A stretch of 64,000 bases of DNA from a bacterium (GCA_021777565.1 JAJYDJ010000001.1:248856-312855), one strand, 5' to 3'; counted from the stretch's first letter, positions 39,278 through 60,167 are shown. Made by a program: numbers and translations. Notes: generated from the sequence alone by a model not told the origin.

Positions 39278-40330
39278 TTACTCTGTAGGAAAAGATTTCT
39301 TCATGTCGATAACGTATCGTTTAGCCATGTTCTTCTCCATCAAAGACTCCCAGGCGTTATTAATGTCTTGGATGTTGATCACTTCAATCTCAGGAAGGAT
39401 ATGATGCTCTGCACTATAGGCAAGCATTTCTTCTGTCTCTTTCATTCCGCCAATCCCTGATCCTGCAACTGATCGCTGTCCATGGATGACATCCCCACTG
39501 TGAAAGCCTGGCATCGGTTCGATAGCTCCGACGATACAGAGAACGCCATGGATATTAAGAAGTTTTATATAAGGAGACAGATCGTGGGCTTTAGGGATGG
39601 TGTTGAGTAAGAAATCAAATGAATTGGCGGCGTGTGCCATATCCTCTTCTGAACTTGAGACGATAACGCCTTTCGCACCGTATGACTCTGCTGCTGCTTT
39701 CTTCTCGGGTGAGGAGGTAATGACCCAGACCTCAGCTCCCATCGCGACGGCATATTTCACTCCCATGTGTCCGAGTCCTCCCAGTCCAATAATACCGACT
39801 TTCATCCCCGGCCCTATCTTCCAGTGACTCAGTGGTGAAAATGTCGTGATACCAGCACACAGAAGTGGTGCTGCATGAGCAGAATCCAAAGATTCAGGGA
39901 TAGACACTACGAAATGTTCAGGGACGACCATCAGTGTAGAATAACCACCTTTCGTATCGGTGCCATCCACGGGGTCTTTGGAGCTATATGTCCAGATGGT
40001 CTCTTCAAAACAACTATTCTCAAATCCTCTTTTGCAGGCATCACACGTCCCACAACTATTCACCATGCACCCCACACCGACTCTGTCGCCTACTTTGAAC
40101 TTTGTTACGTTACTTCCGACACGAGTTACGATACCAATTATTTCGTGACCTGGGACACAGGGGTACTCTACTTCTCCCCAGTCACCACGAGCGGTATGAA
40201 TATCAGAATGGCACACGCCACAATACTGGACTTCCAGTTCTACATCATCTGGGGTAGGTTCACGACGATCAAATTCGTAGTATTCAAGTGGTTTATCTGC
40301 ACTGGGGGCTGCAAAAGACTTGGCTTTCAT
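39278..40330 (-). CDS. Zinc-dependent alcohol dehydrogenase (cinnamyl-ADH/YahK-like, NADP-type)
   Basis: GVCHSDIH catalytic zinc motif, structural-zinc Cys cluster CGTCDACKRG, and Rossmann GLGGLGHMGVKYA. Confidence 0.85.
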   Translation of the reverse strand: MKAKSFAAPSADKPLEYYEFDRREPTPDDVELEVQYCGVCHSDIHTARGDWGEVEYPCVPGHEIIGIVTRVGSNVTKFKVGDRVGVGCMVNSCGTCDACKRGFENSCFEETIWTYSSKDPVDGTDTKGGYSTLMVVPEHFVVSIPESLDSAHAAPLLCAGITTFSPLSHWKIGPGMKVGIIGLGGLGHMGVKYAVAMGAEVWVITSSPEKKAAAESYGAKGVIVSSSEEDMAHAANSFDFLLNTIPKAHDLSPYIKLLNIHGVLCIVGAIEPMPGFHSGDVIHGQRSVAGSGIGGMKETEEMLAYSAEHHILPEIEVINIQDINNAWESLMEKNMAKRYVIDMKKSFPTE

Positions 40331-40371: not shown

Positions 40372-40611
40372 TTATTTCTTCTTCCACCTCGGGGCGAAGG
40401 CGATCATTTGGGTGAAGATCCAGGCTTGAATGGGATTCATGCCATTCTTACGCATGCCCTGATAGGCGTACTTTTGAAAAGTCTTGAGATCGCTCTCTGG
40501 ATGGATGAGTTTGCCATTCTTACAGCAGTTACTGCAGTATCGTGGGTCTCCACTCTTCCCCGTGTCCTGAGATAGTGGCATCATGCACGACTCACAATTC
40601 TTTGGCTTCAT
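40372..40611 (-). CDS. Small zinc-ribbon protein (putative Zn_ribbon_2-like)
   Basis: 79 aa, CESCMMPL...YCSNCCKNGKL CxxC...CxxCC spacing typical of the 'putative zinc ribbon domain' family. Confidence 0.5.
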   Translation of the reverse strand: MKPKNCESCMMPLSQDTGKSGDPRYCSNCCKNGKLIHPESDLKTFQKYAYQGMRKNGMNPIQAWIFTQMIAFAPRWKKK

Positions 40612-40658: not shown

Positions 40659-41957
40659 TTATTGAAGAGATTGGATTTGAGTTCTCAAAGCTTCAAGCTT
40701 CTTCGGGATGGTTTCTTTCTCTTCAAAATCTATACCAAATTTTTTCTTATAAGTATCCTGAAAGTGAGGGTGTTTTCTGAGTTCGTTAAACAAGGGCCAA
40801 GTTTTATATTCTTCTTCAGAAATCTTCTCTGATGGAATCGACTCCATAAGTTTTAATGCCTTATCAAATTCATCTTTTAGCACACATATAGCTAGCTTAT
40901 ACATGTCATCTTTTGCACTCCAGTCTTCATCATCGATTAACTGCGTACATTGTGCTTTATCTCCATGAAATTTATATGCTGCTGCTCCATTGATTAGGAT
41001 CATGCATTTTGTCTCTTCAGATGAATAATCATTTAATTTTTTCCCAAGGTTGAGAATCTGTATTGTTATGTTATATTTTTCCCCTTTGAGTGACTCATAT
41101 GATAGTTGTCTTAAACTTATATCTGCTTTATCCTTGTCCTTAGGTAGGATTTTTCTGCGAATAAGCTGCTCGGTTATAATACCGGCTTCATAAAATGTTT
41201 CACATGCCTTTGCAAAGTATTCGGGGCGTATTGTTAATGAGCGGCCTAAATCTATACTAGATATGTCAACATCATTAGCTTTACATACTTCTAGATATTG
41301 CTTAGAAGCAATACCATTGTTGTGGATAATTACATTCCTTCTCTCACTGATTTCTATCAGTTGTGGCCACATGTCAATTTTCTCTATAATTTTTACATTA
41401 GAAATTTTCTCTAAAAATTTAAATCTATCTGTTATACTGCCTCTTAGGAACTCATCAACTTCTTGGGAAATGATATTTTCTTTAACATCAGTTAATGATG
41501 AATATTTAAGAACATCTGGATAACTAATCTTCTTCTCAGATCCTACTAAAACCTCCGGGTGGATCTCATAGATGTCTCTCAAAAGGTCAGCTAAAAATAT
41601 ATCGAATTTTGTTATTAGAGCAACTAAATACATTTCTCGTACAGTTGCTTTAGACATAAGATGGATAGCAGTCTCTCTGATGAGTTCATGCAGAATATCA
41701 AACGTAGCATCGTCGATTTTTACTGGTCCTTTTTGAAATTTGGTAGCAAATGAATTTATTTCAGTAGAGTCTTTAGTAATAATGCTCGTTAGAACAGTTT
41801 CAATTAATGGTAATGTCTGATCTAAAGACTGGATCTCCAGATTTAGCTTATTGATTGCGGTATCAAAAGGTTGAATTTTCTCTCTATTGGTTTTGCGTCT
41901 CGCGAGCCTTACTTCCCTCTTTTTTTTACCTTTTTGATTTTTTGGCTTTGATTTCAT
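40659..41957 (-). CDS. Hypothetical all-alpha protein with a HEPN-like Rx4H motif (candidate RNase/abortive-infection-type protein). Basic N-terminus.
   Basis: 432 aa. Lys/Arg-rich N-terminus (MKSKPKNQKGKKKREVRLARRKTNREK). ...ISERRNVIIHNNG (R-x4-H) near residue 214 inside a predicted helical domain. Visibly AT-richer than its neighbours. Start shares TAATG with the pheT stop. Confidence 0.55.
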   Translation of the reverse strand: MKSKPKNQKGKKKREVRLARRKTNREKIQPFDTAINKLNLEIQSLDQTLPLIETVLTSIITKDSTEINSFATKFQKGPVKIDDATFDILHELIRETAIHLMSKATVREMYLVALITKFDIFLADLLRDIYEIHPEVLVGSEKKISYPDVLKYSSLTDVKENIISQEVDEFLRGSITDRFKFLEKISNVKIIEKIDMWPQLIEISERRNVIIHNNGIASKQYLEVCKANDVDISSIDLGRSLTIRPEYFAKACETFYEAGIITEQLIRRKILPKDKDKADISLRQLSYESLKGEKYNITIQILNLGKKLNDYSSEETKCMILINGAAAYKFHGDKAQCTQLIDDEDWSAKDDMYKLAICVLKDEFDKALKLMESIPSEKISEEEYKTWPLFNELRKHPHFQDTYKKKFGIDFEEKETIPKKLEALRTQIQSLQ

Positions 41958-43912
41958 TACTTCACTTCTCCTTCAAATGCCTTCTTGAGGTGGGAGAGGA
42001 TCTTTTCTCTGACTGGGGTGATGTCATCAGTCGTGAGGTTACGAGTATCACTCTGGTACACGATGTGGAAAGTTCGTGAAGAATTGTAGCGGCTTGTCAT
42101 GGAGACCTCTTTGATCAGATCACTCTGTCTTTTGATATCACTCACGATATTACCAGTGGGCACAGCGTCATCAATGACGACGGTGATGTCCTCTTCTAGC
42201 CCAGGGAATTTGGAGGCTTCGGTATATCTTTTTTTCATGTGTGCATACTTCCCGACCAAAAGTTCGAAGTTAATTTCTGCTGTAACGAGCTCGTGAGGAT
42301 AGACATGAATTTCACCGATCACTTCCTTCTCGATACTCACAGGGACCACTAGAATATTTTCTCTCTGTGTTGGAGTCTGCCAATTTAGCACTATACCCAT
42401 GTCGAGTGCTAACTGTTCCAGTACTCCCTTCATGTGTGTAAACTTACCAAACTTCCCATGTAGTAAAATTCCCAACAACTCTCTCTCTTCTGGTAATGTC
42501 CCCTTGCGGTATGGGTACACTTTGGCTAGTTCAAAGATAGTGATATCTTTTCTCCCCTTGTTCAAGTGAGTCACTTCTAGAAGACTTGGGGTTAACGATT
42601 GGCGCATGAATACGTGCTGTTCGTCAAGTGGGTTACTCAGCTGATAATATTCTTTGCCTTCTTCTTTTAATTCTTTGCTCACCATCGAGTAAGTGTACAC
42701 TTCGGTCAGTCCCCAGAATTTCAGTGCATCCCGTACTCGCCTCTCCCAATAGAACAAGTCTTTGGCTTGATGATAGCTCGCAGCAGTGGTGTAGGGTGGC
42801 AGGACATTTGGCAGTGTATGATAGCCGATCATGCGAGCGATCTCCTCTACCACGTCAGCATCCATGGTAATATCATCGACTCTCCAGGATGGTGGCGTGA
42901 CTAAAAGTCCTGTGTCTGTTGTCTCCATGTCAAAGCCTAAAAGCTTGAGACACGCCACTGCTTTCTTGCCGTCTACATCGATCCCAATCAGTGTGTTTAT
43001 TTTTTCAAAAGAAACTGAAACTTCTTTGATTTTTACGGGGTGTGGGTAGATATCGATGATCTCCTCCACCACTTTAGCCTGTGCATATTTCTCGTAGAGT
43101 TCCAGACCTCTCAAAAGTGCCGTCATAGCGAGCTCAGGATCAACATCTTTTTCATTGATCACGGCGGCATCGGTACGAATACCAAGCCCCATGGAGGTCT
43201 TTCTAATATGCGTTGGATCATTGTTGTCGACAAAGAAGAGTACGCGTGTGGTCTCGTCAGTGATGGCACTATTGGCAAGTCCCATGACTCCCGCCAGATC
43301 AATGATACGACCGGTGGCATCTTCGATCATAATGTCTCCACCATGTAGCGTGTGTTCTTTGTCATCCAGGGTCATGATCTTCTCGCCTTTTTTGGATGGG
43401 CGGATCGTCATAGTGTGGGTATTAAGCTGATCAAAATCGAAAGCATGGGTGGGATGTCCGATCTCGAGCATGACGTAGTTAGTGATGTCGATGAGAATAT
43501 TAAGTGGTCTGATATTGGCCTCTTCAAGGCGTTTCTTCATAAATTCTGGTGTTTCTTTTTGCGTGACTTCCAACTCTACTGCGCAAATACGACGAACGAG
43601 CGTGGGATCATTAACGATCTTGAGATGTTTGGTATGGGTCACGGTCTCTGGTGTTTTGAATTTTTCTTCATGGTAGGTGGCATGGATATTTGCACCGGTG
43701 AGTGAGGCAGCAATTTCTTTGGACAGTCCTCTGACACCCATCATATCCACACGATTACTGGTGATCTCGAATTCATAGGCGATGTCTTCTGTCAAATATT
43801 CTACTTTTTCCACAGATGCACTACGTAGAGAAACTTCGCGTGCGATATCCTCCGGTGTAGCATCGGTAGTAACAAACTCTCTGATATGACTATCTAAAAT
43901 ACGTATATCCAT
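41957..43912 (-). CDS. pheT: Phenylalanine--tRNA ligase beta subunit
   Basis: B3/B4 and B5 domains (FDFDQL, GVMGLANS), C-terminal anticodon-binding FDBD. Start taken at MDIRILD (ATG 43912); the ORF-track start at 44032 adds a 40-aa non-homologous extension. Confidence 0.85.
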   Translation of the reverse strand: MDIRILDSHIREFVTTDATPEDIAREVSLRSASVEKVEYLTEDIAYEFEITSNRVDMMGVRGLSKEIAASLTGANIHATYHEEKFKTPETVTHTKHLKIVNDPTLVRRICAVELEVTQKETPEFMKKRLEEANIRPLNILIDITNYVMLEIGHPTHAFDFDQLNTHTMTIRPSKKGEKIMTLDDKEHTLHGGDIMIEDATGRIIDLAGVMGLANSAITDETTRVLFFVDNNDPTHIRKTSMGLGIRTDAAVINEKDVDPELAMTALLRGLELYEKYAQAKVVEEIIDIYPHPVKIKEVSVSFEKINTLIGIDVDGKKAVACLKLLGFDMETTDTGLLVTPPSWRVDDITMDADVVEEIARMIGYHTLPNVLPPYTTAASYHQAKDLFYWERRVRDALKFWGLTEVYTYSMVSKELKEEGKEYYQLSNPLDEQHVFMRQSLTPSLLEVTHLNKGRKDITIFELAKVYPYRKGTLPEERELLGILLHGKFGKFTHMKGVLEQLALDMGIVLNWQTPTQRENILVVPVSIEKEVIGEIHVYPHELVTAEINFELLVGKYAHMKKRYTEASKFPGLEEDITVVIDDAVPTGNIVSDIKRQSDLIKEVSMTSRYNSSRTFHIVYQSDTRNLTTDDITPVREKILSHLKKAFEGEVK

Positions 43913-44142
43913 ATATATTTTTTCTTTTTTATCGTTCTTTTGTATCGACAAAAGAACCAAAAACTCTTGCGCTGAGAAAGTCGGGCTATTTTTCTCACTC
44001 ACTCGTCTGGGAAATGCTGCCCCTTCAGACATCCGTCAGAGACGGAGTCTGGCTTCCCCTGATGTCGTTCGTTCAAAAAACTTCAAGCCCTTTGTTTCTA
44101 CGCGCAAAGTCTAATTACACAACGATGTTCATGTGCTTTTCT

Positions 44143-50617: not shown

Positions 50618-50691
50618 TGGAGCTAACTGGACTCGAACCAGTGACCTTTACAATGTCAATGTAACGCTCTAACCAACTGAGCTATAGCTCC
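50618..50691 (-). tRNA. tRNA-Val (anticodon GAC)
   Basis: Reverse complement GGAGCTATAGCTCAGTTGGTTAGAGCGTTACATTGACATTGTAAAGGTCACTGGTTCGAGTCCAGTTAGCTCCA folds as a cloverleaf; anticodon loop TTGACAT. CCA not encoded. Confidence 0.85.
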
Positions 50692-50747
50692 AAAGATAGC
50701 TCTATTATAGCGAATCTACGATATGTGAGCAACGTGAAGACGGTTAA

Positions 50748-51518
50748 TCAACCTGATTTGGCAGCATTGGTCTCGGAATTCACAATATCACTTCTCTGTT
50801 TGGGCTTAAATCTTCCCATCATGCCGCCTGATTTGGCCTTCTGACTTTGTGGCTGGCCAAACTGCCCCTGCATGTTTCTCTTGCCTTGTACGGCTCTCTG
50901 CCACGTGCCTGACTCACTACTGCGCTGCTGTACATCCCTGGCAAGGGATAACAAGTTACTCAGGACACTGGAAGTTGCCTTATCAGGGGTCATCCCTGGG
51001 CCTGTTGCTTGGATAAGCTCTCTTTGCAGCGAGGCATCTTTGGTTGTCGCCGCAATACGCTGAATTTCCCCAAGAATTTCCTGGCTACTTCGCTGCATTT
51101 TTTGTCTCTCTTCACCTTCAGCCTTTTTACTTGCGTTGATAAGATCTCTTGCATAATTTGGTGTCTCGATCCCCGCTTCGATATGCACTGGCTTCTTCTC
51201 TGGAACTACTCCTTTGAGTTCACCTGGATTTTTATTGAGAGAGGCCAGATCGATTGCGGTACCAGGCTGCATCTCACCTTTTTTGCCAAGCATGGGCGAT
51301 AGGTCGATGCCCGTGATATTTTCAACGGCCTGTCCAAAGCCTGTTTTGGCATGTTCTTGGACTGTTTTTCCCACACTTTTGGGCATTTCTTTCAGGATCT
51401 CAAATCCATCAGTAGTTGGACGAGGCGGTGTAGGCGTCTTTTTGGGCGGTTGGAAAGGATTTGGGCTTTTTTGCAAGACCCCGAAGGTTTGTGCGGGTTT
51501 ACCCCATGAATCGGCCAT
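50748..51518 (-). CDS. Hypothetical low-complexity protein (Pro-rich N-terminus, Gln/Lys-rich C-terminus; probably disordered)
   Basis: 256-aa ORF on the same strand as tig. PNPFQPPKKTPTPPRPT. No domain recognised. Confidence 0.4.
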   Translation of the reverse strand: MADSWGKPAQTFGVLQKSPNPFQPPKKTPTPPRPTTDGFEILKEMPKSVGKTVQEHAKTGFGQAVENITGIDLSPMLGKKGEMQPGTAIDLASLNKNPGELKGVVPEKKPVHIEAGIETPNYARDLINASKKAEGEERQKMQRSSQEILGEIQRIAATTKDASLQRELIQATGPGMTPDKATSSVLSNLLSLARDVQQRSSESGTWQRAVQGKRNMQGQFGQPQSQKAKSGGMMGRFKPKQRSDIVNSETNAAKSG

Positions 51519-51530
51519 ATATGTATCGTC

Positions 51531-52382
51531 TTAGAGATTGGCTAAGAAATCAAGCGTTTTCTGTTGGCGAAGGATTGTCGTGACCATGTAGATGTTTTTT
51601 TGGATAGCTTCTTTTTCTTCTGGTGACTTGGCAGTAGCAAGTGCTTCATCAATCTCTTTCTGTCCTACCTCAAGCTTGGCATCATTAGCAATAGCCTGGA
51701 GAATAAATTCGAGTGCGATATCTCCTCGTGCCTTCCCTTCGTATTCAGCCTTGAGTGTCTCGATGGTTTTGCCTGTGGATGCCATGTACTGATCCAAAGA
51801 AAGGCCCAATTTCTTGATCTCACCCAAAAGTTGGGACAAGAGTCTCTCTGCTTCGCCTTCGATAAGCACCTGTGGGACTTTCACGGTAACTTTTTCTAAA
51901 AGTACTTTGACGATATCTTCAAGTTTTGGTTTCTGCACTTCAGTCTGTCCTGGCTTAAGGATTTTGCCAGCGGCGGTTACTGCTTGAACATCCTTTTTGT
52001 AGTCTCCCAAGACGACTTCTGGGGTTTCACAGGTGATAGCCTCAAATTCCCAGTCCCCTTCGTCATCAAGTTTGGTCACATTGATGCGTGGGTTGATGAT
52101 TGGTTTTACTTTTTGCTCATTCACAGCCATGACATAGGCGGTTGGAAGTAGTTGTTTTAAGGTAGCTTCTCGTACTTTCTCAGGATCAAGTTTGGTCTCA
52201 ATCATTTCCTTTGGTGCTTTGCCAGCACGGAATCCTGGAAGTTTGGCAGCTTGTGCCATCTTTGCTACTTCTTCTTTGCGGACTTTTTCTACTTCTGCTT
52301 TTGGGAGTGTAATGGTGAAGACGATATCGCCGTTCTCTTCTCGCTTGACTGTTGTTGGATAGGGGCTGGTAGTTGCTGCCAT
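51531..52382 (-). CDS. tig: Trigger factor (short form: ribosome-binding + PPIase-like regions only)
   Basis: GFRAGKAPKEMIE is the trigger-factor ribosome-binding signature (GFRxGxxP). About 283 aa versus about 430 aa typical. Confidence 0.75.
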   Translation of the reverse strand: MAATTSPYPTTVKREENGDIVFTITLPKAEVEKVRKEEVAKMAQAAKLPGFRAGKAPKEMIETKLDPEKVREATLKQLLPTAYVMAVNEQKVKPIINPRINVTKLDDEGDWEFEAITCETPEVVLGDYKKDVQAVTAAGKILKPGQTEVQKPKLEDIVKVLLEKVTVKVPQVLIEGEAERLLSQLLGEIKKLGLSLDQYMASTGKTIETLKAEYEGKARGDIALEFILQAIANDAKLEVGQKEIDEALATAKSPEEKEAIQKNIYMVTTILRQQKTLDFLANL

Positions 52383-52425
52383 AGTGAGCATAGTTTAGCA
52401 GAGATTACCGTGGTGAGCAAGGCTA

Positions 52426-52511
52426 TGGTGCCGGGAAAAGGACTTGAACCTTCACGCCCTCACGGGCACATGGTCCTAAACCATGCGTGTCTACCATTTC
52501 ACCACCCCGGC
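52426..52511 (-). tRNA. tRNA-Leu (anticodon TAG)
   Basis: Reverse complement GCCGGGGTGGTGAAATGGTAGACACGCATGGTTTAGGACCATGTGCCCGTGAGGGCGTGAAGGTTCAAGTCCTTTTCCCGGCACCA. Long variable arm; anticodon loop TTTAGGA. CCA encoded. Confidence 0.85.
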
Positions 52512-52566
52512 AAATTACCTAAAGATAGGTGTAGTATAGCGTAGTTAGGCTGTGTTGGGAACTCTT

Positions 52567-53118
52567 TTACAAAGAGATTGTGAGGTTTCGTGCGTCAAAA
52601 TCGTGCTTAAAGTTCTCAATGTCTTGCATGAAGTAACTCACATGTGAGGCCCATGCTGGATTTGAGGCATAGTGATGGCCAAGTTTGTAAATGTCAGTAT
52701 CTCCCCACTGGTTAATGTATTGCTGACGAATACCTTGTGAGACCGTGTGAATACCTTCAGGATATGAGTTAAAACAGACCATGTTCGTGCCAAAGATTCC
52801 CCAACCCCAGGCATTGATACAAGGGACTGCCTGTCCAAAGTTGGATTCAACTCCAGAAATAGCCAGAACAAGATCCCATGGGAGTTGATAGGCATCAGCT
52901 TCCTGTACGAAGTTAGCAGCGTAGGGTGCAAGTGGTGAGTTACGTTTCTCCAGATACGCACGAGCAGCCTGGATACGGGTATCAGCCACGATAGTAGTCT
53001 GGGCATCGATATTGAGTATTGCGGATGAACCAGAAGCCTTTTCTTGGGCATGTGCTGCTTGCAATGGGAAAACCATCAGAATTGCGAGAAGGTAAGTTGT
53101 TGTAAGAATGTGTTTCAT
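52567..53118 (-). CDS. Secreted glucosaminidase-domain (GH73/FlgJ-like) putative peptidoglycan hydrolase, paralog A
   Basis: Signal peptide MKHILTTTYLLAILMVFPLQAAHA|QE. ISGVESNFGQ (E-S-x-x-G), then NAWGWGIFG and FNSYPEGI match the glucosaminidase-domain pattern. Start taken at ATG 53118; the ORF-track GTG at 53154 would overlap a terminator. Confidence 0.6.
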   Translation of the reverse strand: MKHILTTTYLLAILMVFPLQAAHAQEKASGSSAILNIDAQTTIVADTRIQAARAYLEKRNSPLAPYAANFVQEADAYQLPWDLVLAISGVESNFGQAVPCINAWGWGIFGTNMVCFNSYPEGIHTVSQGIRQQYINQWGDTDIYKLGHHYASNPAWASHVSYFMQDIENFKHDFDARNLTISL

Positions 53119-53152
53119 ACTCGGGTCTTTACAGACCGTATGGGTGTGAGCC

Positions 53153-53196
53153 ACAAAAAAATCCTAACGTATGCATTTGAGAGGCATACCTTAGGA
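53153..53196 (-). terminator. Rho-independent terminator between the two GH73-like paralogs
   Basis: Minus strand reads CCTAAGGTATGC-CTCTCAAAT-GCATACGTTAGG (12-bp stem, 1 mismatch) followed by ATTTTTTTG. Confidence 0.55.
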
Positions 53197-53322
53197 TCTG
53201 TTGACATAATAACAAACTATTATAGGTTTGTCAAGGGGTTAATTATAGGACGTTTGAGGCTAAAATAACCCAAAAATAGGGCAATTTTGCTTTAGTTGTT
53301 GAAATTGGAACAGCAAATGAGG

Positions 53323-53907
53323 CTATATCTGATCCATGAAGGAAGACACGTTTTGGATCCAGTTATTGGTATTGGTAGGGTTGTACACCGGGCCAATCTG
53401 CTCTGGCGTAATAAGGCCTTGAGAGACATAGTGAACACCCAGGGATTTGCTGACCGTAATGATGGCATCTTCATAGTTATCAAAGGTGACTACCTGCCCT
53501 CCATGGATGCCATATCCCCAGCAATTATGCGTGCCTGGCATTTCAGTCTTGCACAGCGTAGACTCCTGCATGCCTATGGCTACTAACAGGCGGTAATCAA
53601 GCTTATTTTTATCTGCCTCACGCACAAATACCTGAGCAAAAGGTGCCAGAGGCGAGTGATATCTTCTCAGGAAGGATTCCAATCTGAGCGTGCGCGAGTC
53701 AGTCTCCCCGACCGTCGTAGTGATAGTGTCTGCTGCCGTAGGTAAGGCCGCGTAGGCGACCTTTTTGGCGGGCGTAATATGTCCAATAAGGGGGAAAACC
53801 AGTCCTGAGCTATGCGCGTAGCCAAAATAGCCATATAACATTATGGCAGCAACAAGTAACCCTGGGGTGAAGGTGAAGAATGATAGAAGTAGAAATAACT
53901 TCTTCAT
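53323..53907 (-). CDS. Secreted/membrane-anchored glucosaminidase-domain (GH73/FlgJ-like) putative peptidoglycan hydrolase, paralog B
   Basis: N-terminal hydrophobic anchor MKKLFLLLSFFTFTPGLLVAAIMLYGYF. IGMQESTLCK, NCWGYGIHGG and FDNYEDAI parallel paralog A. Confidence 0.6.
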   Translation of the reverse strand: MKKLFLLLSFFTFTPGLLVAAIMLYGYFGYAHSSGLVFPLIGHITPAKKVAYAALPTAADTITTTVGETDSRTLRLESFLRRYHSPLAPFAQVFVREADKNKLDYRLLVAIGMQESTLCKTEMPGTHNCWGYGIHGGQVVTFDNYEDAIITVSKSLGVHYVSQGLITPEQIGPVYNPTNTNNWIQNVSSFMDQI

Positions 53908-53981
53908 GCTGTCTTTATCGTGTCACTTTGTGCGTATGGTTGTCAAGTTGAGCTCAGATTGGTACAATTGTTGTGTTGTCA

Positions 53982-54064
53982 GCCCAGATGGCGAAATGGT
54001 AGACGCGCTAGTTTCAGGTACTAGTCCTCGCAAGGGGGTGGAGGTTCGAGTCCTCTTCTGGGCA
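53982..54064 (+). tRNA. tRNA-Leu (anticodon CAG)
   Basis: GCCCAGATGGCGAAATGGTAGACGCGCTAGTTTCAGGTACTAGTCCTCGCAAGGGGGTGGAGGTTCGAGTCCTCTTCTGGGCA. Long variable arm; anticodon loop TTCAGGT. No CCA. Confidence 0.85.
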
Positions 54065-54078
54065 CAACAGAGCATCTG

Positions 54079-54825
54079 CTATTTGTCCCCTAGTGCATCG
54101 CGTAAGGTATAACGATCAGCCATAAGATACCACTTAATACGCAACAAATCGGTGAGTGACAAGATAATATCACGAGGGAAATGGACCTTGGTATGAACAT
54201 CATTTGACCAGCTGACCGGGACCTCCTTTACTGAAAACCCACGCTTGATGGCAAGCGTGATAACTTCACAATCAAAACCCCATCGATCAATGTGTGAACG
54301 TGTGAAAATTTCTTTACTTGCTTTATGAGAAAATGCTTTAAATCCACACGTGAAGTCAGAAACAGGTACACGAAGTAACACCTGAGAAAACTTCGTAAAA
54401 CTTTTTCCCAAAAATTCTCTCAACCATGGCTGATGATGCTTTATCTTGGCACCTTTGGTTTTGCGTGATCCGATCACGACATCATGGGATGACAGTAAAG
54501 GAAGGAAATCAATCAGCGTGTCCAGTGGGGTTGAAAGATCCACATCCATAAAAAGATGGTAACGTCCTTGTGCCCGGAGCATCCCTACTCTGATAGCATG
54601 GCCTTTCCCTTTATTGGCCGAATAGCCGATAATTCTGACGTGTGGGTGTTTTTTTGCAAAGGCAATGAGTTTATCTCGCGTCTTATCACTACTCCCGTCA
54701 TCAACAAAAATAATTTCAGTCGTAAATTTTTGTCGTGAAAAAAAAGTGGTAATTACGGGCAAGGTATGTAAACGCTTCTGCTCGTTATAGACAGGGATGA
54801 TGACTGATAAGTATGGCCTTTTCAT
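54079..54825 (-). CDS. GT2-family glycosyltransferase, polyprenyl-phosphate sugar synthase-like (DPM1/GtrB/ArnC-type)
   Basis: MKRPYLSVIIPVYNE...IIFVDDGSSDKT...GKGHA GT-A signature (DxD-type). Soluble, about 248 aa. Start at MKRPY (54825). Confidence 0.75.
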   Translation of the reverse strand: MKRPYLSVIIPVYNEQKRLHTLPVITTFFSRQKFTTEIIFVDDGSSDKTRDKLIAFAKKHPHVRIIGYSANKGKGHAIRVGMLRAQGRYHLFMDVDLSTPLDTLIDFLPLLSSHDVVIGSRKTKGAKIKHHQPWLREFLGKSFTKFSQVLLRVPVSDFTCGFKAFSHKASKEIFTRSHIDRWGFDCEVITLAIKRGFSVKEVPVSWSNDVHTKVHFPRDIILSLTDLLRIKWYLMADRYTLRDALGDK

Positions 54826-55559
54826 ACGGTCCGCTTTTGTGCAACGCAAAAAAGTGTCGTCCCGAACGGCACAGGAAGAATACGCATCCACACCGACTCT
54901 ATCCAAAACAAAAGTGAAAAAAGTGTATTAACCAAACTGTTGGTGTGAGAAAAATCCGAGGGATATGATTTACCTTTATATAACAATGATTTTACATATC
55001 GAACTACGTATGCAGGAATGAAAAGGAACGAATAACGATACGTCATTTCACGAATACTAAACCCATTCTTCACCAATACCTCATACAATGACTTTCTAGT
55101 ATAACGTCTCTTGTGGTGCAGCACTTCATCCCATGTGCTCCAAAGGAATGGAAAGGCAGGGACACTGAGAATGAGATATCCATTTTTCTTTAATACTCGC
55201 GCGCATTCATTAAGCGCCTGTCCCTCACTCTCTATATGTTCGAGAACATCAAGAAGCGTAATACCATCAAAGGTCTGTGCTGGGAAAGGTAAGTGCTCAG
55301 CATCCCCTTTTACTACTTGCGTCAATCCTCTTTTGTGACAGAAGCGTAATGCATCCGCGGATGGGTCTACTCCATAGGCATCCCCTATCATTGACCATTT
55401 CTGTACATTATTTCCTGTGCCACATCCCACATCCAAAATCTTTGCGTTGGGGGTAGTCACGAAGCGACGAAGATAGTCGAAAATCGTGCCTGTTTTTGCT
55501 CTATGCCACCAATGCTTTTGTTCAGTAACAAAGAGATCTTTATATAAATATCGTTCCAT
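54822..55559 (-). CDS. Class I SAM-dependent methyltransferase
   Basis: Motif I ILDVGCGTGNN and motif II/post-I FDGITLLDVLEHI. 4-nt overlap with the GT2 start. Confidence 0.75.
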   Translation of the reverse strand: MERYLYKDLFVTEQKHWWHRAKTGTIFDYLRRFVTTPNAKILDVGCGTGNNVQKWSMIGDAYGVDPSADALRFCHKRGLTQVVKGDAEHLPFPAQTFDGITLLDVLEHIESEGQALNECARVLKKNGYLILSVPAFPFLWSTWDEVLHHKRRYTRKSLYEVLVKNGFSIREMTYRYSFLFIPAYVVRYVKSLLYKGKSYPSDFSHTNSLVNTLFSLLFWIESVWMRILPVPFGTTLFCVAQKRTV

Positions 55560-55609
55560 ATACGAGGCTACATTTTATAGTATATACTAATGCTTGAGCA
55601 TACAGAAAG

Positions 55610-57214
55610 ATGAAATTTTTATATAACCCCAGGAATAGATGGATTGCTTTGCTTTTTTCCGTTATTGTCCTGCTTACCTATCGAGATGTTTGGTTTATTT
55701 ACTTCCAGCAAGATGAATGGTTCTGGTTTAAGAAAATTCTTTTATTCGATCACTACGGCATCTGGAATCACTTTCAGGTTGTGAGTAATCACTTTACTCC
55801 CCTTTTCTCCTTGCAGTTTGATCTTATGATGCGTCTTTTTGGATTTAATACTTTTTTTTATGGCCTTTATAACTTTGTTTTGCATTACATCAATACAGTT
55901 CTTGTCTTTGTCTTTGCAAAAAAGGTAACACGGAGTGAAAAGATTGGTATTATTGCCGGTGCTCTTTTTGCAGTCGCAGCGACACCGGTGGAGGCGGTTA
56001 CCTGGTATGGGACGTCTCCCATGTCTCTTCCTTCGACCACCTGTGGACTGTTCGCCTTACTGCTTTTTCATAGTTACTTACAAAAAGGACAAATAAAAAA
56101 ACTTATCCAAAGTCTTGCTCTTATCATCATCGGGAGTTTGTTTTATGAAAGTCTTATCGCCTTATTTCTTTTTCTGATTGTGTGGGCACTTATAGAAAAA
56201 CGAAATCGGAAAGATACTATTAGTTGGTCCATGCTCGTTGGTGTCCTCTTTTTTATCTTCAGGTCTCTCTTACAAGTGACACAAGGGATTACCATAAAGG
56301 TCTCCTATGCGACTTATCTGGCAACGGTTGTTCATCACCTGATAAAATTTATTCCTCTAGGATTTTCTCAACTCTTTGTCCCTACAGAGTGGGTATACCA
56401 AACCTCGCTTGCACTTATTCAATATAATCAGCCGGACATATTGCAGATGATTCCAAAAGAGTGGGATATGTATTTCAATCTTGATAATCTGATGCGCACA
56501 TTCTTTCTGTCATTTACGGTCATCATTGTCTTGAGTCTTCTTATTTACATCGCTATCCCTTTTGCCCAAAGAGAGAGAAAAAAATATATTATTCTTTTCT
56601 TTCTTTTTTGTATCATTAATTTCCTTCCCTTTTCGCTTCTGCCCCAGAGTGGACTTGAGTCTCGTCATTTTTATTTCATCACCATAGGGAGTTCTGTCAT
56701 GTTGGGAATTATTATTGAGAGATTTTTTGAGAAGATTGGGTCGCCAATCGGCAAACTTCTTATTATCTTTCTCGTGACTTATTATATGGGTTTTCAAATC
56801 CATTTTATTCGAGATGCGGTAGTTGCTCTGGGACGTGTAAGTGCCGTCAGAGCAACAATAGTTCACGATGTTGTGTCCACATACAAGACAGTGCCACCTC
56901 GTGTGATTTTCTATTCAACGACTGGGGTTCTGCCATTTCAATCAGGATTTGGAGAGACGCTTATGGTCAACTACGCATCACAACACTCATATATCCCTTT
57001 CTTTAAAACCGAATTCCTGACCCACATGGGAGAACAAGGATATCAGGAAATGGATGGTGTCGGATTTGGCTACTTTAGTGAATATGCACTCCTCAAGCAG
57101 GCATATGATGCCTATCACCTGCAGCCATCGGATGTCTATGCCTTTGCGTGGGATAATGTGAATAAAAAGCTCATTGACCAATCTGTGCAAATCAGGGCCA
57201 AGCTCTCTCAATAA
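55610..57214 (+). CDS. Polytopic membrane protein, putative GT-C-fold glycosyltransferase (GT39/GT83, PMT/ArnT-like)
   Basis: 534 aa, at least 11 predicted TM helices. Asp-Glu pair in the first extracytoplasmic loop (FQQDEWFWF) as in PMT/ArnT-type GT-C enzymes. Divergent from the GT2+MTase pair. Confidence 0.5.
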   Translation: MKFLYNPRNRWIALLFSVIVLLTYRDVWFIYFQQDEWFWFKKILLFDHYGIWNHFQVVSNHFTPLFSLQFDLMMRLFGFNTFFYGLYNFVLHYINTVLVFVFAKKVTRSEKIGIIAGALFAVAATPVEAVTWYGTSPMSLPSTTCGLFALLLFHSYLQKGQIKKLIQSLALIIIGSLFYESLIALFLFLIVWALIEKRNRKDTISWSMLVGVLFFIFRSLLQVTQGITIKVSYATYLATVVHHLIKFIPLGFSQLFVPTEWVYQTSLALIQYNQPDILQMIPKEWDMYFNLDNLMRTFFLSFTVIIVLSLLIYIAIPFAQRERKKYIILFFLFCIINFLPFSLLPQSGLESRHFYFITIGSSVMLGIIIERFFEKIGSPIGKLLIIFLVTYYMGFQIHFIRDAVVALGRVSAVRATIVHDVVSTYKTVPPRVIFYSTTGVLPFQSGFGETLMVNYASQHSYIPFFKTEFLTHMGEQGYQEMDGVGFGYFSEYALLKQAYDAYHLQPSDVYAFAWDNVNKKLIDQSVQIRAKLSQ

Positions 57215-57288
57215 AATGAGCATAGCCCCCTTTAGGTAGCAGCCTCTAGGCGACAGGGCAGTTTTTTGCTATAATTTTGTCAATCCAA

Positions 57289-57371
57289 GCGGATGTGGTG
57301 AAATGGTATACACGCTACCTTGAGGTGGTAGTGCTCGAAAGGGCGTGGAGGTTCAAGTCCTCTCATCCGCA
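57289..57371 (+). tRNA. tRNA-Leu (anticodon GAG)
   Basis: GCGGATGTGGTGAAATGGTATACACGCTACCTTGAGGTGGTAGTGCTCGAAAGGGCGTGGAGGTTCAAGTCCTCTCATCCGCA. Anticodon loop TTGAGGT; long variable arm. Confidence 0.85.
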
Positions 57372-57386
57372 CCGTTCCTTACGTAA

Positions 57387-57463
57387 GGATCCATAGCTCA
57401 GCTGGTTAGAGCGTCTGTTTTACACACAGAAGGTCAGAGGTCCGAATCCTCTTGGATCCACCA
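57387..57463 (+). tRNA. tRNA-Val (anticodon TAC)
   Basis: GGATCCATAGCTCAGCTGGTTAGAGCGTCTGTTTTACACACAGAAGGTCAGAGGTCCGAATCCTCTTGGATCCACCA. Anticodon loop TTTACAC; CCA encoded. Confidence 0.85.
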
Positions 57464-57490
57464 ATCAGGATTGGTACAATAAAATAGTTC

Positions 57491-57563
57491 GCCGAGGTAG
57501 CCAAGGTGGTCAAGGCACCTGTCTGAAGAACAGGCTATATCAGTTCGACTCTGATCCTCGGCA
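57491..57563 (+). tRNA. tRNA-Phe (anticodon GAA)
   Basis: GCCGAGGTAGCCAAGGTGGTCAAGGCACCTGTCTGAAGAACAGGCTATATCAGTTCGACTCTGATCCTCGGCA. Anticodon loop CTGAAGA. No CCA. Confidence 0.7.
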
Positions 57564-57852
57564 CAGCACTTCTTGCTCTTCTGATAATTTCCTCTCTATA
57601 CTATTAGTATGATAGTCAAAAGAAAAAATGGCTATTATGTCCTCTCTGAAAAGACCAGACGTAATTTGGGTGGCCCATATGCAACGCGAGAAGAGGCTGT
57701 AAAACGGCTGCGACAGGTGGAATTCTTCAAATATCGCACAAAATAGCAATTTTTATATAGTTTGATCTACTTTGTACTCTTTTCTTTCGTAAATTTTACT
57801 GGTATACTACCTTTATCTTAGTAATAAGATATATCTCGCAAGAGATGCAAAG

Positions 57853-57877
57853 AGGACTCCGCAAGGGGTCTTTTTTG
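57853..57877 (+). terminator. Rho-independent terminator (+ strand hairpin GACUCC-GCAA-GGGGUC plus U6), directly abutting the stop of the minus-strand FMN reductase gene
   Basis: aggactccgcaaggggtcttttttgtg. Stem includes one G-U pair. Confidence 0.55.
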
Positions 57878-57880
57878 TGT

Positions 57881-58462
57881 TTATTTTGAAGGAGTTGTTA
57901 ATTCTTCGCGGATGGGCTTGAGCTTCTCAGCCCAGAAGACAAGTTGTTCGACAAGTCCATCGCCACTTTTTTCAATAAGTGAAAAATCATACTGTCCTTG
58001 GTCATTGAGATGGCTCCAGTACAGAGGCATATGGACATTGTTACGCATTGGGTGCATTTGTAACTCCAGTAAAACTTCTTTCAGTTGTTGCACTGCTCTC
58101 GTTCCCCCGGCTGGTCCCCCATAACTAATAAAGGCTGCTGGTTTATGATTCCATTCTTTATATACATAATCAAGAGCATTTTTTAATACAGCACTATATC
58201 CATGATTATATTCTGGAGTGATAAAAATATACCCATCCCCTTCTGCAACCTTTTGGGTCCACTTCACTACTTCTGGGTTGGTAAAAGGTGTTGGCGACGA
58301 ATTAGGTGATGCTGGTTCTTCAAAAAATGGCAGTGGATAGTCTCTCAGGTCAAGAAGTTCTGCATCAATCCCTTTCTCCTGAAGCTTTTTCACGATCCAG
58401 TTACCTGGTTGTTCAGAAAATCTTTTTTGTCTGGTACTTCCGAGAATGACTTGAATTTTCAT
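57881..58462 (-). CDS. NAD(P)H-dependent FMN reductase (flavodoxin-like fold)
   Basis: MKIQVILGSTRQKRFSE N-terminus typical of NADPH-dependent FMN reductases. 193 aa. Confidence 0.7.
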   Translation of the reverse strand: MKIQVILGSTRQKRFSEQPGNWIVKKLQEKGIDAELLDLRDYPLPFFEEPASPNSSPTPFTNPEVVKWTQKVAEGDGYIFITPEYNHGYSAVLKNALDYVYKEWNHKPAAFISYGGPAGGTRAVQQLKEVLLELQMHPMRNNVHMPLYWSHLNDQGQYDFSLIEKSGDGLVEQLVFWAEKLKPIREELTTPSK

Positions 58463-58514
58463 AGGTTCTCTATTAGAATAATCCCACTACTTTGTTTTGT
58501 AAAGTAGTTACCTT

Positions 58515-58814
58515 TTGGAAAGTATGGAATGCGGTGTATCAAAAACAATGAAAATCTTAGGGAGTAAGTGGACAGGCATGATCCTCTACTATCTGCTGGA
58601 TGGAACTAGGAGATTTGGTGAATTAGAAAGATTTTTAGTAGGCATCAGCCCAAAGACACTTGCCCTTCGTTTACAAGAATTAGAGTCAGAAGGAATTGTG
58701 GTAAAGAAAGTATTTGCTGAAGTTCCCCTCCATGTTGAGTACTCTCTTACTGAAAAAGGAAAATCATTAAGTGACATTTTTCGCCACATGGAATTGTGGG
58801 ATAAACAACATTAA
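58515..58814 (+). CDS. HxlR-family winged-helix transcriptional regulator
   Basis: CGVSKTMKILGSKWTGMILYYLLDGTRRFGEL matches the HxlR N-terminal consensus (CPV..tL.liGgKW). Divergent from the FMN reductase gene. Confidence 0.75.
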   Translation: MESMECGVSKTMKILGSKWTGMILYYLLDGTRRFGELERFLVGISPKTLALRLQELESEGIVVKKVFAEVPLHVEYSLTEKGKSLSDIFRHMELWDKQH

Positions 58815-58883
58815 CCTCCTGTCAGCATAGATTCATAAATCTGTGATATAACATACATATACAATGAGAAAGGGGGTGAGATT

Positions 58884-59639
58884 ATGATAAAGCAAACCAT
58901 ACTTACAGGCTTGTTTGTTACTATTCTTTCTGGATCTCTGGTCGGTACCGCATTTGCTCAATCTGTTACCCCTGAGTTAGGGAAACCTCTCAGAGGTGCG
59001 GCACGAAATGCAACAACGCTTGATACACTTTGTACCAATGCGATCAATCAACGACTTACCTCACTCAACACGATAAAAACGAGAGTGAGTAATCTCGTAA
59101 AGCTATCTGACACACAAAAACAGCAATTTACCAGTGAGATCACAACTGATATCACTGCATTGCAGGCACTGCAAACACAATGTACGACTGATTTCAATGC
59201 AGGTAACACAACAGCCCTCAAGACTGATTATCACGACATCTTTACTCAGTACCGTATCTACGCAATCTTTATCCCACAGGTTGACCTGTTGGCAGCAGCA
59301 GATACGATGAGTGTTACTGCGACAAAGCTGTCTGACTTTGCAACAAAGTTACAAAGTCGTATTCAGTCCGCAGGTAGTCCAAGTAATCTGACGTCACTGT
59401 TGAGTGATATGCAGGCAAAGATTAGTGATGCCAATACACAGGTGAATACGATTAATTCATCAGTAACATCACTTACTCCACAAAGCTATAACACAGATCC
59501 GGGTGGTTCTAGTGCCACGATGAAAAGTGCTCGCGCTGATCTGAAGACCGGTCGAGCGGATCTTGATACTGCGTGGAAAGATGCCAAGCAGATCTTACAA
59601 GGATTAAAAGTCACGCTTACTCCAACTCCTGGTAGTTAG
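58884..59639 (+). CDS. Secreted alpha-helical/coiled-coil protein of unknown function (Thr/Gln/Ser-rich)
   Basis: Sec signal MIKQTILTGLFVTILSGSLVGTAFA|QS. Heptad-like Thr/Gln/Leu-rich body. 251 aa. Confidence 0.5.
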   Translation: MIKQTILTGLFVTILSGSLVGTAFAQSVTPELGKPLRGAARNATTLDTLCTNAINQRLTSLNTIKTRVSNLVKLSDTQKQQFTSEITTDITALQALQTQCTTDFNAGNTTALKTDYHDIFTQYRIYAIFIPQVDLLAAADTMSVTATKLSDFATKLQSRIQSAGSPSNLTSLLSDMQAKISDANTQVNTINSSVTSLTPQSYNTDPGGSSATMKSARADLKTGRADLDTAWKDAKQILQGLKVTLTPTPGS

Positions 59640-59659
59640 TAAGTACGTGAGAAAGGAAA

Positions 59660-59693
59660 AGCCGTCTTCTTGTTACGAGAGGGCGGTTTTTTT
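59660..59693 (+). terminator. Rho-independent terminator (hairpin CCGUCUUC...GAGAGGGCGG plus U7), bidirectional position between convergent genes
   Basis: gccgtcttcttgttacgagagggcggttttttt directly after the 58884..59639 stop. The minus gene 59705..60022 stops 12 nt beyond it. Confidence 0.5.
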
Positions 59694-59704
59694 ATGGAGA
59701 ATTT

Positions 59705-60022
59705 TTATTGTTGAGGGACGTCAAGTGATGAGTTATTACTGTCCTGAATGGTAGTATTTTGATCTTGCTGGAGCTTGTTCATGCTATTTTGAATATCTTG
59801 TGAGTCTTTGTTGAGCTGCTGATTACTGGTATCGGTAGTGTTGGATAGTCCCCCAGCATTGGTCGCCGATGGAGATGGTTGATTCATCTGTTGTGACGGG
59901 GCAGGCGTCATGGTTGGGAGGGATTTTGCATAGTAGTGGTGCCATACTTTGTAGCCTGCGTAGCCACCGACACCGAGGACAACTATTACTGCAAGCACAA
60001 TAAATAGTGATCTAGATTGCAT
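59705..60022 (-). CDS. Hypothetical small bitopic protein (N-terminal TM, Gln/Asn/Ser-rich tail)
   Basis: MQSRSLFIVLAVIVVLGVGGYAGYKVW TM, then a low-complexity polar tail. 105 aa. Confidence 0.4.
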   Translation of the reverse strand: MQSRSLFIVLAVIVVLGVGGYAGYKVWHHYYAKSLPTMTPAPSQQMNQPSPSATNAGGLSNTTDTSNQQLNKDSQDIQNSMNKLQQDQNTTIQDSNNSSLDVPQQ

Positions 60023-60092
60023 ATATATGTTGTAACAGGTGGAATTTGAGTTGTCAATAAAGGTGAATTCTTGGTATAATGACCTTACCCAC

Positions 60093-60167
60093 GCGGGCGT
60101 AGTTCACCGGTAGAACGTCTCCTTGCCAAGGAGAAGGTAGTGGGTTCGATCCCCATCGCCCGCTCCA
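60093..60167 (+). tRNA. tRNA-Gly (anticodon GCC)
   Basis: GCGGGCGTAGTTCACCGGTAGAACGTCTCCTTGCCAAGGAGAAGGTAGTGGGTTCGATCCCCATCGCCCGCTCCA. Anticodon loop TTGCCAA; CCA encoded. Confidence 0.85.

Follow-up and report, generated by a model that had tools for sequence, protein, structure and literature searches.

The open reading frame (ORF) that follows pheT in the stretch of bacterial DNA analyzed here, 64,000 nucleotides in length and referred to throughout as the window, encodes an uncharacterised member of a solo HEPN protein family; the gene is no orphan, and it does not represent a new type of system. By virtue of its fold and its sequence motif, we place the 432-aa protein with high confidence in the HEPN superfamily, and it is very likely that its gene was gained by horizontal transfer. 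Judged from sequence comparisons, the family to which it belongs is a HEPN family that is modelled by none of the libraries that we tested. The interpretation put forward in an initial annotation of the window, that of an acquired HEPN-type gene coupled to pheST and devoid of an MNT partner, is supported by our data, and the protein is probably involved in defence against phages or plasmids.

The ORF is present where it had been annotated; the ORF listing places it on the minus strand, and its reading frame of 1,299 nt is intact. As had also been noticed before, its ATG (start context gtaATGaaa) overlaps the stop codon of pheT, and the two genes are arranged as follows:

40659-41957, minus strand: complete 432-aa ORF encoding the solo HEPN and TPR-like protein (ORF listing; family profile match with an E-value of 4e-160).
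41955-41959, minus strand: TAATG junction, in which the pheT stop codon TAA (41959-41957) and the ATG of the ORF (41957-41955) have one base in common.
41968-41973, minus strand: Shine-Dalgarno sequence AAGGAG inside the 3' end of pheT, 10 nt 5' of the ATG (read from the sequence).
41957-43912, minus strand: pheT, the upstream gene (Pfam domains B3_4, B5, tRNA_synthFbeta and FDX-ACB).

Consensus scans detected neither promoter-like nor terminator-like sites at the boundary of the ORF with pheT or at that with the following gene. The stop/start overlap, the AAGGAG sequence and the lack of an intervening promoter or terminator make the previously proposed co-expression of the ORF with pheST likely. 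Since the ORF has no promoter of its own, its expression is most likely constitutive, through read-through and translational coupling from pheT. The true start of pheT is Met41 of a 691-aa maximal ORF, and all PheT relatives begin with MDIKILDSH. At its C-terminus, the window PheT stops at exactly the same point as the PheT proteins of its relatives; the insertion consequently adjoins pheT without having damaged it. The ORF lies downstream of the operon thrS-infC-rpmI-rplT-pheS-pheT, and its immediate neighbours are pheT and, 47 nt downstream, a gene for a 79-aa Zn_ribbon_2 protein with a very weak MazE-like match (E 0.23). A Pfam scan of the neighbours revealed no MNT nucleotidyltransferase domain near the ORF, in agreement with the annotated absence of an MNT-type partner. 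The identical protein is encoded on five contigs from four samples, the longest of these contigs being 953 kb, and the four places that were returned, each from a different sample, share the same context and essentially identical DNA; these contigs therefore yield no population-genetic signal.

The AT-richness of the gene, originally judged by eye, holds when it is computed. The GC content of the ORF is 0.336 (GC3 0.286) at a mean of 0.439 (sd 0.031) for the genes of the window, which corresponds to a z of -3.35 and makes the ORF the sole gene, among the 58 called in the window, that lies beyond 2 sd. Across the ORF, the GC content runs at 0.32-0.36; in pheT and in the ADH gene, it amounts to 0.44-0.47. 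With GC contents of 0.47-0.48 (0.479 for the Zn-ribbon gene), the Zn-ribbon and ADH genes form a compositional unit separate from the HEPN gene. No flanking direct or inverted repeats that would indicate a transposon, an integron cassette or an att site were found at the ORF.

PheT searches place the host in the Patescibacteria, the nearest available PheT protein being 52% identical, and a PheT scan of genome contigs for close relatives returned only a 26%-identical locus from Verrucomicrobia. We obtained the loci of relatives by a PheT protein search followed by a look-up of the contigs. The three closest relatives with usable contigs retain thrS-infC-rpmI-rplT-pheS-pheT and a convergent gene for a class-A PBP, with identities to the window proteins of 64-65% for PheS, 50-52% for PheT and 57-63% for the PBP. 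At the pheT-PBP junction, the HEPN gene is missing in all three of these distant relatives (about 14 kb of each; PheT about 52% identical), and so are the Zn_ribbon_2 and ADH genes. The interval contains only a Ser_hydrolase gene and/or small ORFs, to which one of the three (L012) adds a NUDIX gene. Checks of composition and of presence or absence at the pheT junction had been suggested along with the annotation; they revealed an abnormal composition of the gene and no syntenic ortholog in the three relatives. The horizontal acquisition that had been surmised from base composition can now be argued from the GC outlier, the empty junction in three relatives, the patchy distribution of the protein family and the AT-richness of its genes relative to their flanks.

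The protein had been described as the product of an orphan gene. The whole 432-aa protein has no match in Pfam, NCBIfam or PHROGs, and a word-indexed protein search yielded only seven relatives of about 30% identity, so that the ORF would look orphan-like. An exhaustive HMMER profile search, with a profile of these seven relatives as the query and representatives of 50%-identity clusters as the targets, contradicts the orphan status: it recovered 7,340 representatives at E<=1e-3, 4,507 at 1e-10 and 2,354 at 1e-30. Among the best 150 of the 7,340 representatives, almost all are 400-470 aa long and match from end to end. When a profile of 100 sequences was run against the word-indexed database, it returned five proteins, all of which were known already. 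Every source name found for the family reads 'hypothetical protein', and a family-specific model is absent from Pfam-A, NCBIfam and PADLOC (searched with the window protein and 100 members) and from PHROGs (searched with the window protein).

The family is patchily distributed over Patescibacteria, Gracilibacteria, Bacteroidota, Actinomycetota and cyanobacterial plasmids; a tblastn search of 50,697 phage genomes gave no match. At 31 of 32 loci, the GC content of the family gene lies below that of its own flanks (mean difference 13.6 GC points, maximum 30; Wilcoxon p = 2e-9), and the same holds for the eleven viral loci that we examined. Our survey of 84 flanking proteins, two genes on each side at 29 non-redundant metagenome loci, revealed no recurrent partner, with no protein family occurring in more than two loci. 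These neighbours comprise housekeeping proteins (ribonucleotide reductase, gyrase, ClpB, GDP-mannose dehydratase), and proteins of defence or of mobile elements (Fic/Doc, an MmeI-type IIG restriction enzyme, PARIS AriAB, a CBASS cyclase, DolB, mad2, integrase, resolvase, Mutator-family transposase). On the Crinalium plasmid pCRI9333.03, the series hsdM-hsdS-PIN-hsdR immediately precedes the homolog, and on the Nostoc plasmid pC052_A the homolog is placed between a TaqI-like methyltransferase/restriction enzyme plus a 183-aa protein and a 1,103-aa helicase, with gene ends that overlap or abut those of its neighbours and a DUF262 gene further on. Upstream of the Cryptosporangium copy, at a distance of about 2 kb that is occupied by three short genes, there is a DUF4062/VMAP-M2/AAA cluster; Gp49/HTH toxin-antitoxin pairs are found near two homologs (in Salegentibacter and in another genome). 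Twelve IMG/VR viral contigs carry the family gene, and the scan of their neighbours covered ten contigs, not counting two near-duplicates and a short one. On these ten, it is accompanied by CI-type repressors (HTH_3 plus Peptidase_S24; four to five cases), integrases, P2 GPA, P4 Psu, Mu Gam, portal and tail genes, and by the defence-related GmrSD_N, Abi_C and DUF3644. The vicinity of repressor and integrase genes is a classic site of prophage accessory defence genes. Many other family loci, among them those of Gracilibacteria and of a Bacteroidetes MAG, are embedded amid housekeeping genes with no defence gene nearby.

These latter loci could be taken to mean that the protein is a housekeeping nuclease for RNA processing or quality control, recruited to the translation operon to act, for instance, on tRNA or rRNA together with PheRS. 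Its translational coupling to pheT at the end of the thrS-infC-rpmI-rplT-pheS-pheT series is in line with such a role, as is the fact that Las1, Swt1 and Ire1 are HEPN processing enzymes (PMC3710099), and the gene is identical in four samples. We nevertheless consider this explanation unlikely. The same junction is empty in the three nearest relatives, the composition of the gene is foreign here and in 31 of the 32 family loci, and the patchy distribution includes plasmid and provirus copies. Moreover, neither pheS and pheT nor the Zn-ribbon gene occurs near any of 103 other family loci, and an ADH-like gene does so in a single match (L054). We discarded a functional link to PheRS, since proximity to pheS or pheT was seen at none of these other loci.

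The AlphaFold2 model of the protein (pLDDT 83.7) and the family alignment delineate the following parts:

41871-41957, minus strand: Lys/Arg-rich N-terminal tail (aa 1-29), lineage-specific and predicted to be disordered (pLDDT below 50 for residues 1-28).
41712-41870, minus strand: variable region of a long N-terminal helix (aa 30-82; helix 30-75 in the model).
41142-41711, minus strand: HEPN-like helical-bundle domain (aa 83-272).
41442-41462, minus strand: upstream acidic/basic element E166, D168-x3-R172 (family consensus E-x-E-x-x-L-R-x-S-H).
41322-41339, minus strand: predicted catalytic motif R207-N-V-I-I-H212 (R-N-x3-H), with R207 and H212 invariant and N208 conserved to at least 90%.
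40728-41141, minus strand: conserved domain of predicted TPR-like helical repeats (aa 273-410), a putative sensor or partner-binding module.

The protein had been described as basic and all-alpha. The second attribute agrees with the predicted structure; the first one applies only to the first 30 residues, which have a pI of 11.9, since the pI of the whole protein is 7.6 and that of residues 31-432 is 5.4. Matches to homologs begin at residues 20-40 or so of the query, and the tail formed by residues 1-29 is the least conserved part in the family. The A-rich N-terminal extension of the ORF has the appearance of a recruited leader sequence. Most conserved is the HEPN domain; mean column information is 2.78 bits in the HEPN core vs 1.38 bits in residues 30-82. 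The TPR-like domain is followed by a variable C-terminal tail. A Foldseek comparison with the PDB gave only global TPR matches, which were not significant.

HEPN proteins are recognised by an R-x4-6-H motif, a polar N, D or H residue after the Arg, and an acidic residue further upstream, typically within E-x3-[KR] (PMC3710099). All three features are kept in the window protein, as R207-N208-x3-H212 and as E168-x3-R172 (with Asp168 in the window copy) plus E166, and the predicted structure is the up-and-down alpha-helical bundle expected of a HEPN domain. The motif peptide ISERRNVIIHNNG on which the initial annotation relied is present, with R207 and H212 as its key residues; the loose R-x4-6-H pattern alone does not rise above chance. 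It occurs four times in the protein and in 62% of shuffled sequences, and we discarded it as evidence by itself for this reason, whereas the strict pattern R[NDH]xxxH is found in 3% of shuffles. What singles out R207 and H212 is their invariance: in an alignment of 100 sequences with a mean column identity of 27%, they are the only invariant columns, and R[NDHQ]xxxH is present in 155 of 155 family sequences. Within the upstream element, conservation reaches 92% for E166, 81% for E168, 99% for R172 and at least 90% for S174. Further residues conserved to at least 90% in the HEPN region are D119, H175, E202, R206, G215, Q220, Y221, C225, Y247, E257 and W267-R268-K269; in the C-terminal region, these are D279, N323, D345-W346, W387-P388, F390, R394 and F399.

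The suggested profile check for HEPN gave matches among family members that are sub-threshold but consistent between Pfam and PADLOC. Nine of 100 members match HEPN_RiboL-PSP at E<=0.1 (best E 2.4e-6) and three match HEPN_Cthe2314, and PADLOC RTasHEPN is matched by 29 of the 100 (best E 2.3e-7). The window protein itself reaches an E-value of 0.023 against RTasHEPN over residues 174-215, which span the motif, and has no match to HEPN_RiboL-PSP (PF18735). Against RiboL-PSP, the family consensus reaches 17.6 bits, below the gathering cut-off of 28.4; against Cthe_2314, for which the cut-off is 27.1, the HEPN domain of the window protein reaches no more than 15.3 bits (E 0.021). Sequence-profile searches of the PDB returned nothing meaningful, the family profile nothing at E<=10. 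The particular families that had been proposed, ApeA, AbiU2, AbiD/AbiF (Abi_2), MAE_28990 and Swt1, found no sequence-profile match, Swt1 giving a weak fold match only; we dropped membership in ApeA, AbiU2, AbiD and MAE_28990 on these grounds.

Not every HEPN domain is a nuclease, and it is conceivable that the protein functions as a non-catalytic scaffold, an adaptor binding RNA, nucleotides or another protein, with its TPR-like domain providing the protein contacts. Sacsin and the substrate-binding HEPN domains of nucleotidyltransferases would be the models for such a role. This is improbable: non-catalytic HEPN families typically lose R-x4-6-H (PMC3710099), and R207, N208, H212 and the upstream acidic residue are kept across a family that is very divergent.

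The window copy itself sits on a long branch: no member is more than 33% identical to it, the family median of best identities being 44%, and the copy departs from the family at H175 (Ile) and W267 (Arg), substitutions by which its activity could be altered. An inert passenger, that is a recently gained, decaying gene whose expression is too low to be of use, might look like this, with foreign composition, a long branch, two conserved positions lost and an odd A-rich N-terminal extension. We regard this view as quite unlikely, since a frame of 1,299 nt has stayed open although AT-rich DNA readily gives rise to stop codons, and it lies behind a good Shine-Dalgarno sequence with stop/start overlap; of the roughly 40 positions conserved in the family, the copy retains most, the catalytic residues among them, and its sequence is identical in four independent samples. 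It is very unlikely that the protein is the toxin of a toxin-antitoxin or addiction module, with the adjacent 79-aa Zn-ribbon protein as its antitoxin or with an antitoxin that was lost: small antitoxins encoded next to HEPN toxins are a common arrangement, the small gene 47 nt downstream has its faint MazE-like match, and Gp49/HTH pairs lie near two homologs, but the GC content of the Zn-ribbon gene is 0.479 vs 0.336 for the ORF, a Zn-ribbon homolog is found in none of 103 family loci, no small neighbour recurs, and an MNT domain is absent nearby. The Zn-ribbon protein was discarded as an antitoxin or partner, given its different GC content and the fact that it never co-occurs with the family.

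On balance, the evidence inclines toward a role of the protein in defence or conflict. HepS, a solo HEPN protein encoded by the Gifsy-1 prophage, is a constitutively made abortive-infection anticodon nuclease, a tetramer that is kept auto-inhibited until a phage tail-tip protein opens it, whereupon it cleaves the anticodons of tRNAs (PMC13043305). By analogy, we favour with moderate confidence a chain of events in which the ORF encodes an acquired solo HEPN sensor-effector RNase comparable in function to HepS. The gene would have been inserted exactly at the end of the thrS-infC-rpmI-rplT-pheS-pheT operon, and the protein would be made constitutively from the pheST transcript. Constitutive synthesis implies that it should normally be inactive, and its resting state might, as in HepS, be an auto-inhibited oligomer. 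A component of a phage or plasmid, sensed by the non-catalytic domains, would serve as the trigger that joins two R-N-x3-H motifs into a composite active site. The assembled site may then cut tRNA or mRNA in a metal-independent manner; RNA cleavage would stop translation, and the infection would thereby be aborted.

Solo HEPN proteins are coming to be recognised as self-contained sensors of phages and as suicide RNases; HepS was characterised in 2026. The family described here is large, with thousands of 50% clusters that are spread over five phyla or more and include plasmid and provirus copies, all of them annotated as 'hypothetical'; giving it a name and testing it would supply a candidate for defence that is overlooked by current annotation pipelines. 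Patescibacteria (CPR) have few recognised defences, and the ORF would be one of few candidate defence genes in this group. For the window itself, the finding is a modest one, a single accessory gene acquired at the end of an operon, and reveals no new principle. Tentatively, and as a possibility that we hold with some doubt, the approximately 7,000 clusters may constitute an undescribed and very widespread single-protein immune sensor-effector. If so, a protein of a phage or plasmid would be recognised by the conserved TPR-like domain or by the variable N-terminal helix, and HEPN cleavage of tRNA or mRNA would thereby be set free; the patescibacterial (CPR) host would have wired a gene of the family to the essential pheST genes as a constitutive sentinel, and the AT-rich signature at 31 of 32 loci would reflect either an unusually fast horizontal turnover or a selection that keeps the expression of a dangerous enzyme low and silenced.

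How does this protein compare with HEPN systems that are already known? Its best sequence-profile neighbours are the RiboL-PSP-HEPN (PF18735) and Cthe_2314-like HEPN (PF18730) families defined by Anantharaman et al., 2013 (PMC3710099), with which it has R-N-x3-H and the upstream acidic residue in common. RiboL-PSP proteins are associated with an L-PSP domain and a ParB operon; the family studied here has neither and possesses a TPR-like C-terminus instead, and a ParB_N gene was seen at one locus only, about 4 kb from the homolog. A text search of the literature found no paper on 'RTasHEPN', and 'RiboL-PSP' led to an unrelated paper only. The RT-associated HEPN domains of DRT/UG-Abi systems (PADLOC PDLC03820 'RTasHEPN'; C-terminal HEPN of AbiA, PDB 8oz7; PMC9226505) differ from the ORF in being linked to a reverse transcriptase, for which no domain, fused or adjacent, was found in the 432-aa protein or its window neighbours; none is present among the families listed for the sampled neighbours of homologs either. 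The RTasHEPN match spans only about 40-100 residues of the family HEPN core, and the HMM match is weak. We did not assign the protein to this group. HEPN-MNT toxin-antitoxin systems of type II/VII (for example PDB 5yep, 7ae2, 8xdj) have an MNT neighbour, whereas the ORF has none, is three times larger and contains extra domains.

With regard to architecture, the LA2681 and C6orf70 HEPN families (Anantharaman et al., 2013) come close in concept, as they join a HEPN domain bearing the catalytic motif to TPR-type repeats and often occur in restriction-modification contexts; no Pfam match to either was obtained for the window protein, its domains or the consensus (E<=10), or among the families listed for 100 members. 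HEPN-TPR fusions as such had been catalogued already in 2013 (PMC3710099). Finally, HepS, the system closest to the function that we envisage, bears no detectable sequence similarity to the ORF (family profile against PDB sequences, E<=10), and it is a protein of about 218 residues, whereas the 432-aa protein carries in addition an N-terminal helix and a conserved TPR-like C-terminal domain.

The AT-richness of the HEPN-TPR gene is a family-wide trait and not peculiar to the copy at 40659-41957 of the window, since at 31 of the 32 plasmid, genome and metagenome loci that entered our GC comparison (among them L005, L007, L013, L014, L028, L048, L064 and L108, each carrying a family homolog) the family member is richer in AT than the sequence flanking it. 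The gap in GC content between the gene and these flanks amounts to a mean of -13.6 points and reaches up to -30 (Wilcoxon p = 2e-9, 32 loci), and the same AT-rich pattern was observed at the viral loci, of which 11 were examined. Rapid horizontal turnover of the family may be responsible for this AT-rich island; alternatively, selection may favor AT-rich, poorly expressed sequences.

Two further genes reside in the junction between pheT and the PBP gene of the window:

39278-40330, zinc-type alcohol dehydrogenase gene, GC 0.471
40372-40611, Zn_ribbon_2 gene, GC 0.479

Like the HEPN-TPR gene, both are missing between pheT and the PBP gene in the three nearest relatives, and the junction of the window therefore contains at least two inserts that were acquired separately. 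Its content differs between the relatives as well, with Ser_hydrolase, NUDIX and small ORFs being found there. Elsewhere in the window, seven tRNA genes are present within 50618-60164, three of which form a cluster; tRNA aside, an Rfam scan of the whole window yielded no family at gathering score.

57289-57563, plus strand, three-tRNA cluster

Next to the HEPN-TPR gene, the maximal pheT ORF (41957-44032, 691 aa) is too long at its start. Judged from the sequence comparison, pheT most likely extends from 41957 to 43912 (651 aa), because the PheT proteins of all relatives begin at the Met equivalent to residue 41 of the maximal ORF (MDIKILDSH...). The HEPN-TPR protein itself carries an N-terminal extension:

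41871-41957, minus strand, aa 1-29 of the HEPN-TPR protein, Lys/Arg-rich and A-rich, starting MKSKPKNQKGKKKREVRLARRKTNREK...

This segment is disordered by prediction, and no counterpart to it was found in the homologs. It may represent a former leader sequence that was incorporated into the ORF upon coupling of the gene to the stop codon of pheT.

Family homologs were also inspected in other genomic settings, two of which are listed here:

L015, 8001-9263, homolog in a Candidatus Gracilibacteria MAG (GCA_028689115.1)
L014, 4199-11559, apparent operon containing a family homolog on plasmid pC052_A of Nostoc sp. C052

With L015, the family is present in another CPR lineage besides that of the window host. 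This homolog is solitary amid housekeeping genes in a genome with a GC content of 22%. Translation with table 11 does not yield the database protein, a mismatch that presumably reflects UGA recoding in the Gracilibacteria lineage, for which we infer genetic code 25.

The copies on IMG/VR viral contigs (L102, L103, L105 and others) are located near genes for CI-type repressors and integrases, with P2 GPA and P4 Psu genes also close by, and further defense genes (GmrSD_N, Abi_C, DUF3644) are found in their vicinity. This gene neighborhood suggests that the viral-contig copies are carried in defense hotspots of prophages or satellites. In the apparent Nostoc operon, a MTase/REase with a TaqI-like specificity domain comes first and a hypothetical protein of 183 aa second; the HEPN-TPR homolog is next, followed by a helicase-related protein of 1,103 aa. 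One gene for DUF262 and one with an EVE domain are located downstream. This arrangement may constitute a multigene defense system that has recruited the HEPN-TPR family.
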